64,000 nucleotides of DNA from Eledone cirrhosa (lineage: Eukaryota), in NCBI GenBank assembly GCA_964016885.1, contig OZ024747.1, forward strand, positions 69,750,001 to 69,814,000. The letters are read 5' to 3'. Below the pieces are notes generated by a model, which saw only the letters and a program-made list of their open reading frames with translations, did no database searches and was not told where the DNA came from. The number at the start of each line of letters is the position of its first letter. The stretch's first letter is position 1. Below are positions 23,054 to 38,367 of the stretch, one piece after another. The position numbers and the translations under genes were made by a program.

Positions 23054-23174
23054 TATAAGTTATAAGAATCAAAGTTCTGATCAAATCATTTATATGCTTA
23101 CAATTGTTTCCTCCAAGGAAACAATTGTAAGCATATAAATGATTTAATCAGAACTGTGATTCTTATAACTTATA
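23054..23174. repeat. Near-perfect palindrome, 59-bp arms with 3-nt loop
   Basis: Arms 23054-23112 and 23116-23174 are reverse complements with 2 mismatches. Confidence 0.92.
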
Positions 23175-23431
23175 TATAACTGCTCTGTAAAACATATGAT
23201 GTTATTACATTGAGCTATTTAACTTACTGGTAATAAGGTAGTAATATATTACTGCCTATCACTATGTAGGGTTTGTAAAAATATATATAACTACAAAAGT
23301 TATTTGTATTTGCATAACCATAATACTATATATATGTATATATATTTACATATATATATACATAATATATATATATATATACATAAATATATATATATAT
23401 ATATGTATATATGTATCTATACATAAATATA

Positions 23432-23469
<38 letters not shown>

Positions 23470-23569
23470 TTGGAGCTCTGAAATAGCAATATATATATGG
23501 ATGTATATATAATGTATTTTGCAATACACTTTATGCTTAATTAAAAGCATTTTGAAGACCGTATCCAAT

Positions 23570-23905: not shown

Positions 23906-24075
23906 AATATATGTATATATATATATATATAAATATATGTATATATATATATATATATAAATATATGTATATATATATATATATAAATATATGTATATAT
24001 ATATATATATATAAATATATGTATATATATATATATATATATAAATATATGTATATATATATATATATATATAAA

Positions 24076-24106
<31 letters not shown>
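23570..24106. repeat. Compound (TA)n array with AAATATATGT motif
   Basis: The same motif continues at 25695-26877 and 27311-28292. Confidence 0.96.
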
Positions 24107-24107
24107 C

Positions 24108-25694
24108 TGGAGAAAGCCTTCGACAGAGTCCCCCGCTCCATTATCTGGTGGGCTCTTAGAAAACTAGGCGTTGACGAATGGCTTGTGAGGGCTATACAAG
24201 CCATGTATAAAGAAACAGTCAGCAAGGTTAGAATTAACAACGAATATAGTGAAGAGTTTAGCGTAAAAGTTGGCGTCCATCAGGGCTCTGTTCTCAGCCC
24301 CCTACTATTTATTATTGCCCTTCAGGCTATAACAGAGGAGTTCAAGACAGGCTGCCCATGGGAACTCCTATACGCAGACGACCTGACACTCATAGCGGAA
24401 TCAATGGCTGAGCTAGAGAAGAAATTCCAAACATGGAAGCACGGCCTAGAGTCAAAAGGACTTAAAATTAACCTGGCTAAGACCAAAGTTCTAGTTTGTA
24501 GGAAAGAAAACAAGGCGGCGGTCCCTTCTGGGAAATGGTCGTGCTCGGTATGTAGGAAAGGCGTAGGTAGAAACTCCATCTTATGTCCTAAATGCAAAGT
24601 ATGGGTGCATAAAAGATGTAGTGGGATCACAGGTAAGCTAACTAAGAACATAGACTTTACATGTGGCCGGTGTTCTGGTGCAATAAGTAGCAGCAAGTAC
24701 CCACAAAATACTAGCTCTTTCAATTGCGCAGAGGGTTTTATAGAAATAGTGGACAGCTTCCGTTACCTGGGCGATAAAATCAGCAGTGGGGGAGGGTGCT
24801 CTGAAAGTACTGTAGCTAGAGTCAGAACTGGTTGGAAAAAGTTCAGAGAGCTTATACCACTATTAGCTGCTAAAGGGTTCTCCCTAAAAATGAAAGGCAG
24901 GTTGTACGATGCCTGCATACGAACAGCAATGTTGCATGGTAGTGAGACCTGGGCATTGTGTGCAGAGGATATACGCAGACTAGAGAGGAACGAAGCTTGC
25001 ATGCTCCGCTGGATGTGTAACAGTAATATACGTGAACGGCAAAGCATAAACGAACTAAGGAAAAAATTAGAGATAAGAGGGATCAGATGTTGTTTACTCG
25101 AGAGAAGGCTGCGTTGGTATGGACACGTGATGCGCATGAAAGTCGATAGCTGTATTACAAAGTGCAGGGCAATAAAGATAGACGGTAGCCACGGAATAGG
25201 CAGACCTAGAAAAACATGGGATGAGCTGATAAACTCCGACCTCACACACTTACACCTCTCCAAGACAATGTCACTGGACCGTGACCTTTGGCGGTACTCA
25301 GTAACAGAGAAGACCCGCCTTGCCAGTAGGCATCTCTAACAAAATACACCCCTCCCGCCGCCACCCCCACCCCATCCACACCACCCCGTTCTATGTAAAG
25401 TTATGTTGGTGCCGCGCCATCCAGGCCGAAACAAATGAGATCGTGTAGGTGTCACGACAAAAAAACACACAGTCCACGCTGTAATGTGGCCGTGTAGGCA
25501 ACACGGTAAAAACCTCCCAGACCCACACTGTAAATGTGGTTGGTGTTAGGAAGGGCATCCAACTGTAGAAAACCTGCCAGACAGTCCTATGCGAGCAAGA
25601 CAATCACTCTTGCCTCAAGTGGGACTACCCCCGTCCAAACCCATGCAAGCGTGGAACACGGACGTTAAACGTTGATGATGATGATGATGATGAT
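24108..25694 (+). mobile_element. RTE LINE, 5'-truncated, 1.6 kb (family 1)
   Basis: Open ORF to 25339 with [17 protein letters not shown]-like Cys cluster, YLG and GRP; near-identical to 30768-32386; a small deletion removes the normal stop. Confidence 0.97.
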
Positions 25695-26877
<1,183 letters not shown>

Positions 26878-26885
<8 letters not shown>

Positions 26886-27310
26886 TTGTAGCTCTGAAAT
26901 AGCAATATATATATGGATGTAAATATAATGTATTTTGCAATACACTTTATGCTTAATTAAAAGCATTTTGAAGACCGTAAGCTATTGTTTTAAAGTAGTG
27001 ATATATTGCTATTTCAGAGCTACAATTCTAATTTTTAATTTTTGCCTGACCAACAACCGCTCTGCATAATCAGCTCCTGATTATTTACTAGATTTCTATA
27101 AGAATATAACATCATTAATCTCAGCAGACGGGCGGGGTAGTTGGCCTTGATAAGCTTCAACAAAAGCGAAACATGTCATGTCGGCTTATCTCCTCCTGTT
27201 TGCTGAGATCGAAGTGAGTGAATTTGTCACTACTTTAAAACAATAGCTTACGGTCTTCAAAATGCTTTTAATTAAGCATAAAGTGTATTGCAAAATACAT
27301 TATATTTACA
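26878..27310 (+). mobile_element. HHR element (~320-nt unit) preceded by an inverted copy of its end-to-start junction
   Basis: 26878-26910 is the reverse complement of 27001-27032; 26918-27001 is the reverse complement of 27228-27310; a second copy of the junction segment lies at 23462-23562. Confidence 0.85.
27118..27209 (+). ncRNA. Type I hammerhead ribozyme, U3-A8 core variant, GUC cleavage site after 27182
   Basis: ATCTCAGCAGACGGG...TTGGCC-TTGATAA-GCTT caacaa AAGC-GAAA-CATGTCATG-TC-GGCT...CCTGTTTGCTGAGAT; compensatory C3-G8 to U3-A8 change and long extended stem I. Confidence 0.85.
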
Positions 27311-27570
27311 TATATATATATATATAAATATATGTATATATATATATATATATATAAATATATGTATATATATATATAAATATATGTATATATATATATA
27401 TATAAATATATGTATATATATATATATATAAATATATGTATATATATATATATATAAATATATGTATATATATATATATATAAATATATGTATATATATA
27501 TATATATATATAAATATATGTATATATATATATATATATAAATATATGTATATATATATATATATATAAA

Positions 27571-29547: not shown

Positions 29548-29580
<33 letters not shown>
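29001..29580. repeat. Compound (TA)n array with CATAAAT motif
   Basis: Direct reading. Confidence 0.95.
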
Positions 29581-29585
<5 letters not shown>

Positions 29586-32386
29586 TTACCAGAAGACGTG
29601 ACAGAGTGTCTGTTGTAAACACTAAATCCCTCCCCCATGAAGAATGCACCTCCCAACATAGACTGATAATTAGCGACCTCATAGTCAGGACGAAACGTAC
29701 TCGACAACAGAAGAGGACTATCCTCAGGAGGAAAATATGGAAGCTAAAGGACCCCACAGCCAGGAATAAATTTCAAAGCATATTACTTGATGCTTTCGAC
29801 AGTAAGGAAGAACATTTAGAGTCGGACAATATAGAGGGAGAGTGGGAATTTCTGAAAGCAAACCTGCTGTTGGCGACAGACGAAGTCTGTGGCTGGAGCA
29901 GGCCTGTAGGCAGGAGGAGAGTAACATGGTGGTGGAACAGTAAGGTGGAGGGGTCAATTAAGGCCAAAAAGCAGGCTTGGAAAGTATGGCGGGATGGGGG
30001 AAGTAGAGAGGACTATCAAGTGGCCAGGAGGGAAGCTAGGAGACAAGTGTACTTAGCAAGAAGGGAAGCTGAGGAAAGAAAGTTCAAGCATGTTCTACAA
30101 CGCGATGACCAAAAACGTGAGGTGTTCAGGATTGCTAGGCAATGCGTCAAGGAAAACCGTGATATTGTCGGGGAGAAGTGTGTACTAAACGACGATGGCA
30201 CACTTGCCATCACCGACGCTGATAAGAAGGTAGCTTGGAAGTGTCACTATGAAAGGCTACTAAATGAGGAGAATAATTGGGAGAAAGGCAGTCTCCCCCA
30301 TATCGACCCAATAGAGGGACCAGCAGTGTTAGTCGAGGGGAGTATAATAAGTAAGGCAATCAAGGATATGAAGACTGGTAAGGCGGCTGGGCCTTCGGAA
30401 ATAGTTGCTGAGATGCTGAAGGCATCTGGCACGGTGGGACACACCATGGTCACCCGCATAGTTAACCAAGTCGTACAGAATGGGGTTGTTCCGAAGGACT
30501 GGCATAGCAGCATCATCGTTAACTGTTATAAGGGTAAAGGAGACGCCCTAGATAGGAGTAACTATAGAGGCATTAAATTAATCGACCAGGTCATGAAGGT
30601 CACGGAAAAAGTAATAGCGCAACTAATCAGAGAGAGAATTGACCTAGATGAAATGCAGTTCGGGTTTGTGTCAGCCAAAAGTACCACAGACGCTCTTTTC
30701 ATAGTACGACAACTACAGGAGAAGTACCTAGCTAAAGGTAAACCCCTCTACTTAGCTTTTGTCGACTTGGAGAAAGCCTTCGACAGAGTCCCCCGCTCCA
30801 TTATCTGGTGGGCTCTTAGAAAACTAGGCGTTGACGAATGGCTTGTGAGGGCTATACAAGCCATGTATAAAGAAACAGTCAGCAAGGTTAGAATTAACAA
30901 CGAATATAGTGAAGAGTTTAGCGTAAAAGTTGGCGTCCATCAGGGCTCTGTTCTCAGTCCACTACTATTTATTATTGCCCTTCAGGCTATAACAGAGGAG
31001 TTCAAGACAGGCTGCCCATGGGAACTCCTATACGCAGACGACCTGACACTCATAGCGGAATCAATGGCCGAGCTAGAGAAGAAATTCCAAACATGGAAGC
31101 ACGGCCTAGAGTCAAAAGGACTTAAAATTAACCTGGCTAAGACCAAAGTACTAGTTTGTAGGAAAGAAAACAAGGCGGCGGTCCCTTCTGGAAAATGGTC
31201 GTGCTCGGTGTGTAGGAAAGGCGTAGGTAGAAACTCCATTTTATGTCCTAAATGCAAAGTATGGGTGCATAAAAGATGTAGTGGGATCACAGGTAAGCTA
31301 ACTAAGAACATAGATTTTACATGTGGCCGGTGCTCTGGTGCAATAAGTAGCAGCAAGTGCCCACAAACTACTAGCTCTTTCAATTGCGCAGAGGGTTCTA
31401 TAGAAATAGTGGACAGCTTCCGTTACCTGGGCGATAAAATCAGCAGTGGGGGAGGGTGCTCTGAAAGTACTGTAGCTAGAGTCAGAACTGGTTGGAAAAA
31501 GTTCAGAGAGCTTATACCACTATTAGCTGCTAAAGGGTTCTCACTAAAAATGAAAGGCAGGTTGTACGATGCCTGCATACGAACAACAATGCTGCATGGC
31601 AGTGAGACCTGGGCATTGTGTGCAGAGGATATACGCAGACTAGAGAGGAACGAAGCTTGCATGCTCCGCTGGATGTGTAACAGTAATATACGTGAACGGC
31701 AAAGCATAAACGAACTAAGGAAAAAATTAGAGATAAGAGGGATCAGATGTTGTTTACTCGAGAGAAGGCTACGTTGGTATGGACACGTGATGCGCATGAA
31801 AGTCGATAGCTGTATAACAAAGTGCAGGGCAATAAAGATAGACGGTAGTCACGGAATAGGCAGACCTAGAAAAACCTGGGACGAGCTGATAAACTCCGAC
31901 ATCACACACTTACACCTCTCCAAGACAATGTCACTGGACCGAGACCTTTGGCGGTACTCAGTAACAGAGAAGACCCGCCTTACCTAAATATATAGTAAAA
32001 CCTACTCCAGCCAGTAGGCATCTCTAACAAAATACACCCCGTCCCACCACCACCACCCCCACCCGATCCACACCACCCCGTTCTATGTAAAGTTATGTTG
32101 GTGCCGCGCCATCGAGGCCGAAACAAATGAGATTGTGTAGGTGTCACGACAAAAAAACACACAGTCCACGCTGTAATGTGGCCGTGTAGGCAACACGGTA
32201 AAAACCTCCCAGACCCACACTGTAAATGTGGTTGGTGTTAGGAAGGGCATCCAACTGTAGAAAACCTGCCAGACAGTCCTATGCGAGCAAGACAATCACT
32301 CTTGCCTCAAGTGGGACTACCCCCGTCCAAACCCATGCAAGCGTGGAACACGGACGTTAAACGTTGATGATGATGATGATGATGAT
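29581..32386 (+). mobile_element. Young RTE-clade LINE, 2.8 kb, 5'-truncated within the APE endonuclease
   Basis: Starts at (DY)ILT...SQHRL (end of APE); uninterrupted ORF; ~400-nt 3' UTR; (GAT)n tail; TA-flanked. Confidence 0.97.
29606..31987 (+). CDS. RTE LINE ORF (partial): APE C-terminus, reverse transcriptase with PHD-type zinc-finger insert
   Basis: [55 protein letters not shown]4HC3 cluster, [20 protein letters not shown]. The frame is open upstream of the listed start, so the true start is lost. Confidence 0.95.
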
Positions 32387-32584: not shown

Positions 32585-33979
32585 ATCATCATCATCATCA
32601 TCATCATCATTTTACGTCCGCCTTTCCCTGCTTGCAAGGGTGGGACGGGTCTTATTCAACACTGCATCTCTCCACTCGTCACGGTCCCTTGTCATCTCCA
32701 CCGTGAGCTTCAATGATCTGAGGTCTGTTCTCACCACATCCGCCAATGTTTTTCGTGGTCTACCTCTACCACGTCTTCCTTCAACTAGCAATTCCTGGCA
32801 CTTCTTCACCCATCGGTCATCCTCCATGCGCATCACATGTCCATACCAACTCAGTCTCCTCTCCCGTACACTACATTCTATCCCTCTCAGACACAGTTTC
32901 TCTCTCAACACATTTATGCTGGGTTGTTCACGCATATTTACACTGCACATCCAATGGAGCATGCTTGCCTCATTTCTTTCCAGCCGTCACATATTCTCTG
33001 CAGTTGCTGCCCATGTGTCACTACCATGCAGCATTGCGCTCCTCACACAGGCATCATACAACCGGCCTTTCGTACGCAGGGAGAAACCTTTCTTCATCAA
33101 CAGAGGAAGCAGCTCCCTAAACTTCTTCCAACCCGTCCTTATTCTAGATACTATGGCCTCGGAACACCCTCCTCCCATGCTAATCTGATCTCCTAGGTAC
33201 CGGAAGCTATCCACCACTTCTATAGCGCCCTCTTGCATTTGAAAAATGTGTCTATCAGTGCGACTTCTACTGTCTAATTTCCCTGTACATCTACTGCATA
33301 CATATTTCTCCCTACCTGTTAGTTTGCCTGCTATCCCGCTACATCTCTTGTGTACCCAGGATCTGCATTGTGTGCATTTTATAGAATTTATGCCAGTTCC
33401 TTTTCTGCATATCGAACATGGCCATTTCCCTGACGGAATCAGGGTTTTGTCCTCTTTTCTAGTCATCAACACTTTTGTCTTAGCTAGATTCACTCTCAGT
33501 CCTCTTGCTTCCAACTGCTGTTTCCATAGCCAGAATTTATTCTCTAGCTCCTCTACTGATTCTGCTATAAGAACCAGATCGTCAGCATAGAGAAGTTCCC
33601 ATGGACAGCCAGTCTTAAACTCCTCTGTTATGGCTTGGAGGACTATAATGAACAAGAGCAGGCTGAGGACCGAACCCTGATGTACTCCTACTTGTATCTG
33701 GAATTCCTCACTAAACTCCATTCCTACCCTGACTTTACTGAGAGTACCTCTGTACAAAGTTTGCACTGTCCTCACAAGCCATTCCTCAACACCTAGCTTC
33801 CTTAGGGACCACCAGATGACAGATCGGGGTACCCTATCAAAGGCCTTCTCTAGGTCAACAAAGGCTAAGTATAGTGGCTTATTCTACTCTAAGAACCCCT
33901 CTCGCAATTGTCTCACCAAGAAGAGGGCATCTGTTGTACTCTTCCCAGGCACAAACCCAAACTGCATCTCATCTAGTTA
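32585..33979 (-). mobile_element. RTE LINE, distinct family, 5'-truncated, with a frameshift near 32980
   Basis: [23 protein letters not shown]-like Cys cluster, YLG and GRPRKT; ORF runs to the (GAT)n tail with almost no UTR. Confidence 0.95.
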
Positions 33980-36125: not shown

Positions 36126-36190
36126 TATTTTGTCTGATGAAGGCATACCATAATTTAACTTGGTATCCTTGAAATATGTATAATGAAATA
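36126..36190 (+). ncRNA. Type I hammerhead ribozyme with intact core, family D
   Basis: TATTTTGT-CTGATGA-AGGCATACCA loop TGGTATCCTT-GAAA-TATGTA-TA-ATGAAATA; 8-bp stem I, 10-bp stem II with one mismatch, minimal self-complementary stem III; stems covary with the 35276 copy. Confidence 0.82.
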
Positions 36191-36226
36191 AATATGCTTT
36201 TATAAATATAGTTTCCATTTATTAAT

Positions 36227-36280
<54 letters not shown>

Positions 36281-36281
<1 letters not shown>

Positions 36282-36383
36282 TTATTAAAATAACAGATCA
36301 AAATTTAAGCAAAGAATCGGTGCTTTCACCCTTAACAGGATCTTCTGAAACTAAAAAACATTTTAGTCTTCAAATTTTATTAT

Positions 36384-36390
<7 letters not shown>
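36281..36390 (-). mobile_element. Family C HHR-like element with intact fold at 36302-36352
   Basis: Minus strand: AGTTT-CAGAAGA-tCCT gttaa GGGt-GAAA-GCA ccgattctt TGC-TT-AAATT. Confidence 0.75.
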
Positions 36391-36421
<31 letters not shown>

Positions 36422-36427
<6 letters not shown>

Positions 36428-38367
36428 CATGGTCACCCGGATAGTAAACCAAGTCATACAGAATGGGGTTGTTCTGAAGGACTGGCGTAGCAGCATCATC
36501 ATTAACTGTTACAAGGGTAATGGAGATGCCCTAGATAGGAGTAACTATAGAGGCATTAAATTAATCGATCAGGTCATGAAGGTCACGGAAAAAGTAATAG
36601 CGCAACTAATCAGAGAGAGAATTGATCTAGATGAAATGCAGTTCGGGTTTGTGTCAGGCAAAAGTACCACAGACGCTCTTTTCATTGTACAACAACTACA
36701 GGAGAAGTACCTAGCTAAAAGTAAACCCCTATACTTAGCTTTTGTCGACTTGGAGAAAGCCTTCGACAGAGTCCTCCGTTCCATTATCTGGTGGGCTCTT
36801 AGAAAACTAGGTGTTGACGAATGGCTTGTGAGAGCTATACAAGCCATGTATAAAGAAACAGTCAGCAAGGTTAGAATTAACAACGAATATAGTGAAGAGT
36901 TTAGCGTAAAAGTTGGTGTTCATCAGGGCTCTGTTCTTAGCCCCCTACTATTTATTATTGCCCTTCAGGCTATAACAGTGGAGTTCAAGACCGGTTGCTC
37001 ATGGGAACTCCTATACGCAAATGATCTAACGCTCATAGCTGAATCAATGGCCGAGCTAGGGAAGAAATTCCAAACATGGAAGCACGGCCTAGAATCAAAA
37101 GGCCTTAAAATTAACCTGGCTAAGACTAAAGTTCTAGTTTGTAGGAAAGAAAATAAGGCGCCGGTCCCTTCCGGGAAATGGCCATGCTCAGTGTGTAGGA
37201 AAGGCGTAGGTAGAAACTCCATTTTATGTCCCAAATGCAAAGTATGGGTGCATAAAAGATGTAGTGGGATCACAGGTAAGCTAACTAAGAACATAGATTT
37301 TACATGTGGCCGGTGCTCTGGTGCAATAAGTAGCAGCAGCAAGTGCCCACAAAATACTAGCTCTTTCAATTGCGCAGAGGGTTCTATAGAAATAGTGGAC
37401 AGCTTCCGTTACCTGGGTGACAAAATCAGCAGTGGGGGAGGGTGCTCTGAAAGTACAGTAGCTAGAGTCAGAACTGGATGGAAAAAGTTCAGAGAGCTTA
37501 TACCACTATTAGCCACTAAAGGGCTCTCCCTAAAAATGAAAGGCAGGTTGTATGAAGCCTGCATACGAACAGCAATGTTGCATGGCAGTGAGACCTGGGC
37601 ATTGTGTGCAGAGGATATACGCAGACTAGAGAGGTACAAAGCTTGCATGCTCCACTGGATGTGTAATAGTAATATACGTGAACGGCAAAGCATAAACGAA
37701 CTAAGGAAAAAATTAGAAATAAGAGGGATCAGATGTTGTTTACTTGAGAGAAGGCTACGTTGGTATGGTCACGTGATGCGCATGAAAGACGACAGCTGTA
37801 TAACAAAGTGCAGGGCAATAAAGATAGATGGTAGCCACGGAGTAGGCAGACCCAGAAAACCCTGGGACGACCTGATAAATTCCGACCTCACACACTTACA
37901 CCTCTCCAAGACAATGTCACTGGACCGAGATCTTTGGCGGTACGTAGTAATAGAGAAGACCCGCCTTAGCTAAATACAAAGTAAAACCTACTACAGTCAG
38001 TAGGCATCTCTAACAAAATGCACCTCCGTCCCACCACCCCCACCCCATCCACACCGCCCCTTTCAATGTAAAGTTATGTTGGTGCCACAACATCTAGGCC
38101 GAAACAAATTAGATCGTGTAGGTCTCACGACAAAAAAACACACAGTCCACACTGTAATGTGGCCGTGTAGGCAACACGGTAAAAACCTCCCAGTCCCACA
38201 CTGTAAATGTGGTTGGTGTTAGGAAGGGCATCCAGCTGTAGAAAACCCGCCAGACAGTCCTATGCGAGCAAGACAATCACTCTTGCCTCAAGTGGGAAAA
38301 CCCCCGTCCAAACCCATGCAAGCGTGGAACACGGACGTTAAACGATGATGATGATGATGATGATGAT
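36422..38367 (+). mobile_element. RTE LINE, 5'-truncated, 1.9 kb (family 1); ORF 36429-37973 with YADD changed to YAND
   Basis: 514-aa ORF colinear with 29606-31987; a catalytic Asp is substituted; (GAT)n tail. Confidence 0.96.

Follow-up and report, generated by a model that had tools for sequence, protein, structure and literature searches.

A back-to-back insertion inside a (TA)n array

The window, i.e. the whole 64-kb stretch of DNA that was analysed, harbours a back-to-back insertion of a 317-nt unit inside a (TA)n array. The insertion consists of two arms that point outward: a plus arm that corresponds to approximately one complete unit (311 nt, 27001-27311) and a minus arm of 123 nt (26879-27001). 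The surrounding compound (TA)n extends over about 2.6 kb, and its motif does not change direction across the insertion (32 copies on the left, 33 on the right, 0 reversed). The features are given below, where A and B denote the two sites at which the 3' ends of arms cluster:

23463-23563, minus strand: lone 5'-truncated arm of this family, separate from the insertion, with a site B end in (TA)n
25690-26878, no strand: compound (TA)n target array, left part, start approximate
26879-27001, minus strand: minus arm, unit positions 226-317 followed by 1-31; its 3' end is site B against (TA)n
26879-26909, minus strand: 31-nt "tail" between sites A and B, present at the end of the minus arm only
26905-26920, minus strand: end-to-start (tandem) junction at site A, with a linker that is missing from the plus arm
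27001-27311, plus strand: plus arm; its 3' end is site A against (TA)n, and it overlaps the minus arm by 1 nt at 27001
27118-27209, plus strand: predicted type I hammerhead ribozyme with extended, bulged stem I and stems II and III
27147-27153, plus strand: core U3-U4-G5-A6-U7-A8-A9 (U3-A8 variant)
27180-27182, plus strand: GUC triplet, predicted cleavage after C27182
27312-28290, no strand: (TA)n target array, right part, end approximate

An earlier note on this DNA had described a unit of about 320 nt, as well as an inverted segment that reads from the unit end into the unit start. The tandem unit is real and its exact length is 317 nt; position 27001 is only the 5'-truncation point of this arm and no natural start of the unit. 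The inverted segment does read as described: unit positions 226-317 run straight into positions 1-31, with the linker included.

The single arm at 23463-23563 carries letters of an older subfamily and has no hammerhead. At 23056-23175 the window also contains an almost perfect palindrome, each arm being about 55 bp long, which is probably a repeat family because similar letters occur in an inverted repeat of L112, a Penelope-like element (PLE) described below. A CTGATGA...GAAA motif lies at 36134-36260 (plus strand) inside a repeat that ends in (TA)n. It recurs in the flanks of loci L011 and L025 and, at 88%, in L116, and may represent a minimal hammerhead from the terminal repeat of a different PLE. 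Long frames adjoin (TA)n arrays at 29552-31987, 36336-37973 and 23987-25339 on the plus strand and at 32987-33883 on the minus strand. The longest measures 811 aa. A Cys-rich insert follows the reverse transcriptase (RT), and we take the frames to be of the RTE-like LINE type.

A predicted type I hammerhead with a U3-A8 pair

A variant U3-A8 hammerhead with a TTGATAA core, a GUC site, stems II and III and a 15-bp distal stem I had been proposed for the plus arm, and both the coordinates and the fold bear this out. The core TTGATAA occupies 27147-27153. Stem II is formed by 27154-27157 with 27164-27167 (4 bp) and is followed by GAA at 27168-27170. Stem III is formed by 27171-27174 with 27178-27181 (4 bp), and C17 is position 27182 within GUC. 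Stem I comprises a proximal part (27143-27146 with 27183-27186) and the distal 15-bp stem (27118-27132 with 27195-27209). The motif shows the hallmarks of type I: three helices round the core, a paired 3-8 position (here U-A), GAAA and an NUH triplet. For the hammerhead stretch a fold z score of -6.3 was obtained, and none of 200 shuffles matched it. A motif scan over both strands of the window found it to be the sole U3-A8 hammerhead. The Rfam hammerhead models gave 0 matches at gathering score across the window, in agreement with the earlier claim that canonical searches miss this motif. Such a miss is expected, since the core is a variant, and it does not represent a defining failure.

In a folding model without tertiary contacts the catalytic hammerhead fold lies 5.3 kcal/mol above the predicted minimum-energy fold. 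The latter is not catalytic, and when the unit is folded as a circle the core is likewise sequestered. Covariation was assessed on 25 rows that were hand-picked from 79 distinct rows and that are related to each other. In these rows 96.9% of the stem cells were paired, compared with 35-46% in slid controls, and compensatory two-sided changes occurred in 12 of the 26 pairs, across stems I, II and III. By the number of pairs that changed on both sides, the rows did no better than shuffles (194/500). As modelled, the unit likely carries a U3-A8 type I hammerhead that is predicted to be self-cleaving.

A dispersed family of tandem units

The window is part of a 3.0-Gb assembly, which was used for the family searches. 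Searching with the unit yielded 207 matches from 40 scored of 888 candidates, mostly 99-100% identical. The spacing of units was often 317 nt, and tandem arrays of up to 13 units were found, as the earlier note had anticipated for the genome. The end-to-start junction is therefore an ordinary tandem junction. The U3-A8 core pattern had 2,109 exact matches in the assembly and its reversed control 0; mismatched cores were rare. For the C3-G8 version of the youngest core context 0 matches were found in the assembly. Older U3-A8 subfamilies are 82-97% alike. Extrapolated from such sequence counts, the genome would contain roughly 4,000 U3-A8 cores.

The family is almost certainly a non-LTR retrozyme. 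It is built from a 317-nt tandem unit with one hammerhead per unit and has no ORF, LTR or PBS, the latter being judged from the sequence only. It is dispersed at high copy number and coexists with PLEs. Near-identical insertions are spread over many contigs; each has flanks and a 5' truncation of its own, and the 3' ends are fixed. Repetition also occurs locally: locus L032 shows a 3-unit pattern and L040 a 2-unit pattern, and part of the array length therefore arose after insertion. At L064 (C1:52355500-52360500) an entire back-to-back insertion is duplicated 2.45 kb apart, probably by segmental duplication.

Contigs from sequencing runs of unstated kind were inspected as well. Run X1 has one 347-nt contig (the unit plus 30), which is equally expected of a tandem array or a circle and says nothing on expression. 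The contigs of runs X3 and X4 comprise many subfamily variants and are not informative on expression either.

The 3-8 pair switched within the family

A sister lineage with a CUGAUGA core (C3-G8) is about 72% alike and gave 446 matches. Since this lineage keeps C3-G8, the 3-8 pair must have switched within one family. One search pattern that admits every combination at 3-8 gave 843 rows, and the first 100, counted by eye, comprised 96 U3-A8, 4 U3-G8 and 0 C3 cores. For a second such pattern the first 100 of 1,664 rows, also counted by eye, comprised 76 U3-A8, 23 C3-G8, 1 U3-G8 and 0 C3-A8 cores. Genome-wide, the mismatched cores amounted to 57 U3-G8 and 46 C3-A8. Some U3-G8 cores are found in neighbouring units of arrays, thus a mismatched core can be copied.

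We placed 136 rows, with the youngest rows thinned, in a tree that has a midpoint root only and an unsettled bootstrap. All 28 C3-G8 rows are located behind a 100/97 branch without any U3-A8 row, and the U3-A8 subfamilies form a ladder with the subfamily of the window last. Given its root and bootstrap, the tree does not support calling the C3-G8 lineage "the ancestor". A U3-G8 subfamily as wobble intermediate was rejected: U3-G8 accounts for about 1-4% of its contexts, scattered over the tree, and its rows often share a locus with a U3-A8 arm.

A parallel change is seen at the pair 10.1-11.1. In each of the 23 C3-G8 rows position 10.1 is A or U and position 11.1 is U, and 74 of 76 U3-A8 rows have G10.1 in a G-C pair. 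As read from the aligned rows, the changes at 3-8 and at 10.1-11.1 are one event, which by itself is no proof of coupling. The cleavage triplet of the C3-G8 lineage (L132-L161) is often GUU rather than GUC, and a U-U mismatch is found at the base of stem II.

The U3-A8 core is rare but already known: Perreault et al. 2011 (PMC3088659) describe it as a natural covariation at 3-8, and about 1,300 minimal U3-A8 motifs are described for PLEs of Schistosoma mansoni (PMC4209133). Natural U3-A8 hammerheads are reported there, from earlier work, to be active in vitro. The covariation found here is the same. It differs in that the motif is an extended type I hammerhead in a tandem retrozyme, with a C3-G8 sister lineage in the same genome and the parallel change at 10.1-11.1.

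Paired arms nearly always end with one site A and one site B

The 3' ends of arms cluster at either site A (unit position 305-6, TA-rich) or site B (about 29-39). The two sites are about 31-35 nt apart, and the 3' ends nearly always abut (TA)n. Among 39 young loci there were 33 divergent pairs and 6 single arms. The divergent pairs comprised 28 of type A+B, 1 A+A, 1 B+B and 3 that were unclassifiable (p = 4e-7 against an expectation of 50%). At the only young B+B locus, L045 (C4:358175900-358179900), the flanks are inverted copies of each other; instead of a normal insertion, the locus may thus represent an inverted duplication or an artefact of assembly.

The same pairing was found outside the young group, with classes set by alignment: A+B accounted for 27 of 30 classifiable older U3-A8 loci (60 examined, with 22 single, 4 not divergent and 4 unclassified) and for 14 of 17 classifiable C3-G8 loci (29 examined, with 9 single, 2 not divergent and 1 unclassified). 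An earlier regex classifier had given 6/9 and 13/18 on older loci, with most loci left unclassified.

Where the arms of the 33 young pairs meet, 19 have an overlap of 1-7 nt, 5 are flush and 9 contain 2-58 nt of filler. Some 5' truncation points recur in young loci (unit positions 226, 244, 249, 283 and 285, 3 times each) near predicted hairpins; they are possible RT pause or microhomology sites. One locus with a non-TA target (L002) has a possible duplication of 6-12 bp; elsewhere a target-site duplication is hidden in (TA)n. Overall the insertions display an inverted 5'-truncated copy, a tail at one end, two fixed 3' sites and a (TA)n target, which together point to mobilisation by a PLE.

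A co-resident Penelope-like element with paired ends

A search for GIY-YIG gave 10,597 candidates, of which 150 were scored; 50 fetched loci fell into 8 clusters. The L112 cluster comprises 9 loci. L112 itself has a 938-aa stop-to-stop frame with an RT match of 28 bits (Pfam cut-off 29.6), a Cx4Cx2C linker and GIY-YIG (Atlas 0.98), and both of its terminal repeats contain a minimal U3-A8 hammerhead. RT, Cys-rich linker, C-terminal GIY-YIG and a hammerhead in both pLTRs are the features of the Neptune/Nematis type, and by its domains and repeats L112 is a PLE of this type, not split between Neptune and Nematis. The minimal U3-A8 hammerhead of this PLE has 10,767 exact 35-nt matches in the assembly. 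Many of these matches are short back-to-back pairs about 80-130 nt apart, and the hammerhead has a GUA cleavage triplet after a palindromic CCGG stem III.

In the L112 family, too, the ends of copies fall on two sites, here 63 nt apart. The 9/9 classifiable divergent loci (2 rows unclassified, L123 listed twice) combine one site with the other, and the PLE site B has the same last 7 nt before (TA)n as site B of the retrozyme. Close to GIY-YIG loci there are two further repeat ends with a hammerhead; their cores are C3-G8, and they terminate in a different way.

Beyond TA runs, the retrozyme unit has no homology to the L112 element, and none of the 50 GIY-YIG loci (of 10,597 candidates) has a terminal repeat homologous to the unit, as a unit derived from a PLE terminal repeat (the model of Li et al.) would lead one to expect. 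Several of the 8 clusters end in (TA)n. For these two reasons the helper is not pinned down and L112 is a candidate only; that the U3-A8 PLE family is the specific helper has, in our estimate, slightly less than an even chance.

RNA template and integration mechanism

PAc, a Poseidon PLE protein that is a predicted dimer, cuts and extends both strands and uses two internal RT start sites that bound the tail (PMC11167929). PLE insertions show an inverted 5'-truncated copy, a tail at one end and a (TA)n bias (PMC8557442). The ends of the retrozyme follow the rule of the co-resident PLE, and two priming events thus explain the inversion better than a template switch does. We consider it very likely that two-site priming by a PLE moved the retrozyme.

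The 5' ends provide insight into the template. None of 75 lay at the cleavage site and 1 lay within 3 nt of it, and 65 of 77 arm segments read through the site, up to 13 times. The latter, together with the tandem arrays, upholds the claim that the template contained an end-to-start junction. As the 5' ends are scattered off the cleavage site, a linear cleaved monomer was not the usual template; their absence from the site fits a circular or an uncleaved one. The marker 116A/G was concordant between the arms in 22/22 loci that show it on both, which could alternatively reflect variants active at different times. At L043 a variant private to this one locus is present in 4/4 units over both arms. 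At L039 the minus arm has older-type letters at positions 21 and 305 that are absent from the plus arm, such that not every arm pair stems from one RNA. Even in arms as long as 13 units the units differ little, and no order of unit variants is seen again from one locus to the next. In sum, we regard a circular template as rather probable.

Alternatively, the PLE could prime at two sites on an uncleaved tandem transcript, with a hammerhead that is slow or protein-aided and no circle being needed. This would account just as well for arms that read through the cleavage site, and the mixed locus L039 and a catalytic fold that is not the minimum-energy fold are in line with it. Furthermore, unprocessed RNA was the main PLE substrate in vitro (PMC11167929). 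Two published results count against the main reading: hammerhead cleavage was dispensable for PLE insertion in vitro (PMC11167929), and of 9 Xenopus retrozyme dimers, 8 showed no cleavage in vitro (bioRxiv 2026.07.22.740005). However, an uncleaved transcript is at odds with the near-homogeneous long arms that have no recurring order of unit variants and with the private variant in every unit of L043. The stems and the 3-8 pair were moreover kept through successive subfamilies, which implies selection for cleavage, and related retrozymes accumulate as circles: tandem transcripts of coral, mussel and axolotl retrozymes are cut and ligated to circles (PMC7229834). We thus consider the uncleaved transcript unlikely, with a chance that is still appreciable.

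The earlier note had attributed the inversion to a template switch. A switch or fold-back within a single round of reverse transcription would agree with the short overlaps at 19 of 33 arm junctions and the filler at 9, but in 28 of 30 classifiable young pairs each arm has a fixed 3' site next to (TA)n at its outer end, A for one arm and B for the other. In addition, the minus arm of the window was not copied from the plus arm because it has linker letters that are missing there. We judge such an origin to be very improbable.

Marginally less probable still is satellite DNA that arose by unequal crossing-over from dead PLE terminal-repeat fragments, with a unit that is not mobile. A model of satellite birth is put forward in bioRxiv 2026.07.22.740005, and the local duplications at L032 and L040 would be in line with it. 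Against such an origin stand the dispersal of near-identical insertions that have fixed 3' ends and differ in flanks and 5' truncations, the ladder of subfamilies and the absence of a homologous terminal repeat among the 50 PLE loci. An RTE-type LINE as helper is the least credible option: such elements are abundant in the window (e.g. the presumably RTE-like long frame at 29552-31987), lie also beside (TA)n and have ends that flank several loci, but LINE partners have a single fixed 3' end with a repeat tail, which the retrozyme does not have, and its two internal sites with one-per-end pairing match a PLE.

Taken together, it is likely that a young 317-nt retrozyme with a predicted hammerhead, probably circularised, was copied into (TA)n by a PLE protein that primed twice. 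Tandem copies would be transcribed and would self-cleave after C17 to monomers, which would be ligated to a circle. The PLE protein, probably a dimer, would nick both (TA)n strands. One cDNA would then start at site A on one strand and the other at site B on the opposite strand, mostly from one RNA. Each cDNA would roll over a variable length, and the growing ends would be joined with short overlaps or filler.

A more far-reaching version can be offered only tentatively, and we would lean somewhat against it: PLE integration may be an obligate asymmetric two-primer reaction, in which a single RNA offers two fixed internal start sites and each target strand uses one of them. A 317-nt ribozyme circle without homology to the PLE would have captured both sites and be rolled out from both ends. 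Retrozyme and helper would have the U3-A8 core in common independently, and the C3-G8/U3-A8 switch would be coupled to 10.1-11.1.

Relation to known retrozymes and PLEs

Metazoan non-LTR retrozymes, as characterised by Cervera & de la Pena 2020 (PMC7229834) and Li et al. (bioRxiv 10.64898/2026.07.22.740005), share with the present family a tandem unit of 150-450 bp that is low in GC and carries a single type I hammerhead, a copy number in the thousands and coexistence with PLEs. The present family differs by its U3-A8 core and by arms that lie back to back and stop at two fixed 3' sites in (TA)n, an arrangement that neither work describes. The word "inverted" is absent from the text of PMC7229834 and occurs once in that of bioRxiv 2026.07.22.740005, in a reference title only. 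In Xenopus, 24 of 57 families matched known elements, nearly all of them PLEs, whereas here no homology to the terminal repeat of the candidate PLE was detected.

With EN+ PLEs of the Neptune/Nematis type (PMC8557442; PMC11167929 for the Poseidon element PAc) the retrozyme shares partial tandems, an inverted 5'-truncated copy and a tail at one end, which in PLEs measures 30-40 bp. It also targets (TA)n, and its hammerhead lies upstream of two internal RT start sites, as theirs does. In contrast, the retrozyme has no ORF and is thus non-autonomous, its hammerhead is fully extended rather than minimal and dimeric, and its tail of 31-35 nt compares with 63 nt in the co-resident PLE.

Each feature taken singly has been published, be it the retrozyme, the U3-A8 core, the inversion of PLE copies or the tail at one end (PMC8557442; bioRxiv 2026.07.22.740005). 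In the main texts of the mainly open-access literature we found no description of PLE-type inverted two-site ends on a retrozyme, no count of A/B pairing and no 3-8 switch inside one retrozyme family. The words hammerhead, retrozyme and ribozyme do not occur in PMC13282606.

Implications

As the source of the enzyme that moves animal retrozymes, PLEs are strong candidates according to PMC7229834, and bioRxiv 2026.07.22.740005 argues for PLE mobilisation from co-occurrence and terminal-repeat homology. The ends of insertions are a more direct witness. Here they match the co-resident PLE in three subfamily groups, which provides genomic evidence of PLE mobilisation. The near-strict pairing of one A with one B turns the description that a tail is often found at one end into a testable mechanism, and it fits the two start sites and the predicted dimer of PAc.

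Surveys based on CUGANGA overlook a family of, by extrapolation, roughly 4,000 cores. In this family a single extended hammerhead exists naturally both with C3-G8 and with U3-A8, which provides material for kinetic comparison. If the reading of PLE integration as an obligate two-primer reaction were true, the retrozyme would moreover provide a minimal RNA for dissecting PLE priming and (TA)n-targeted insertion.
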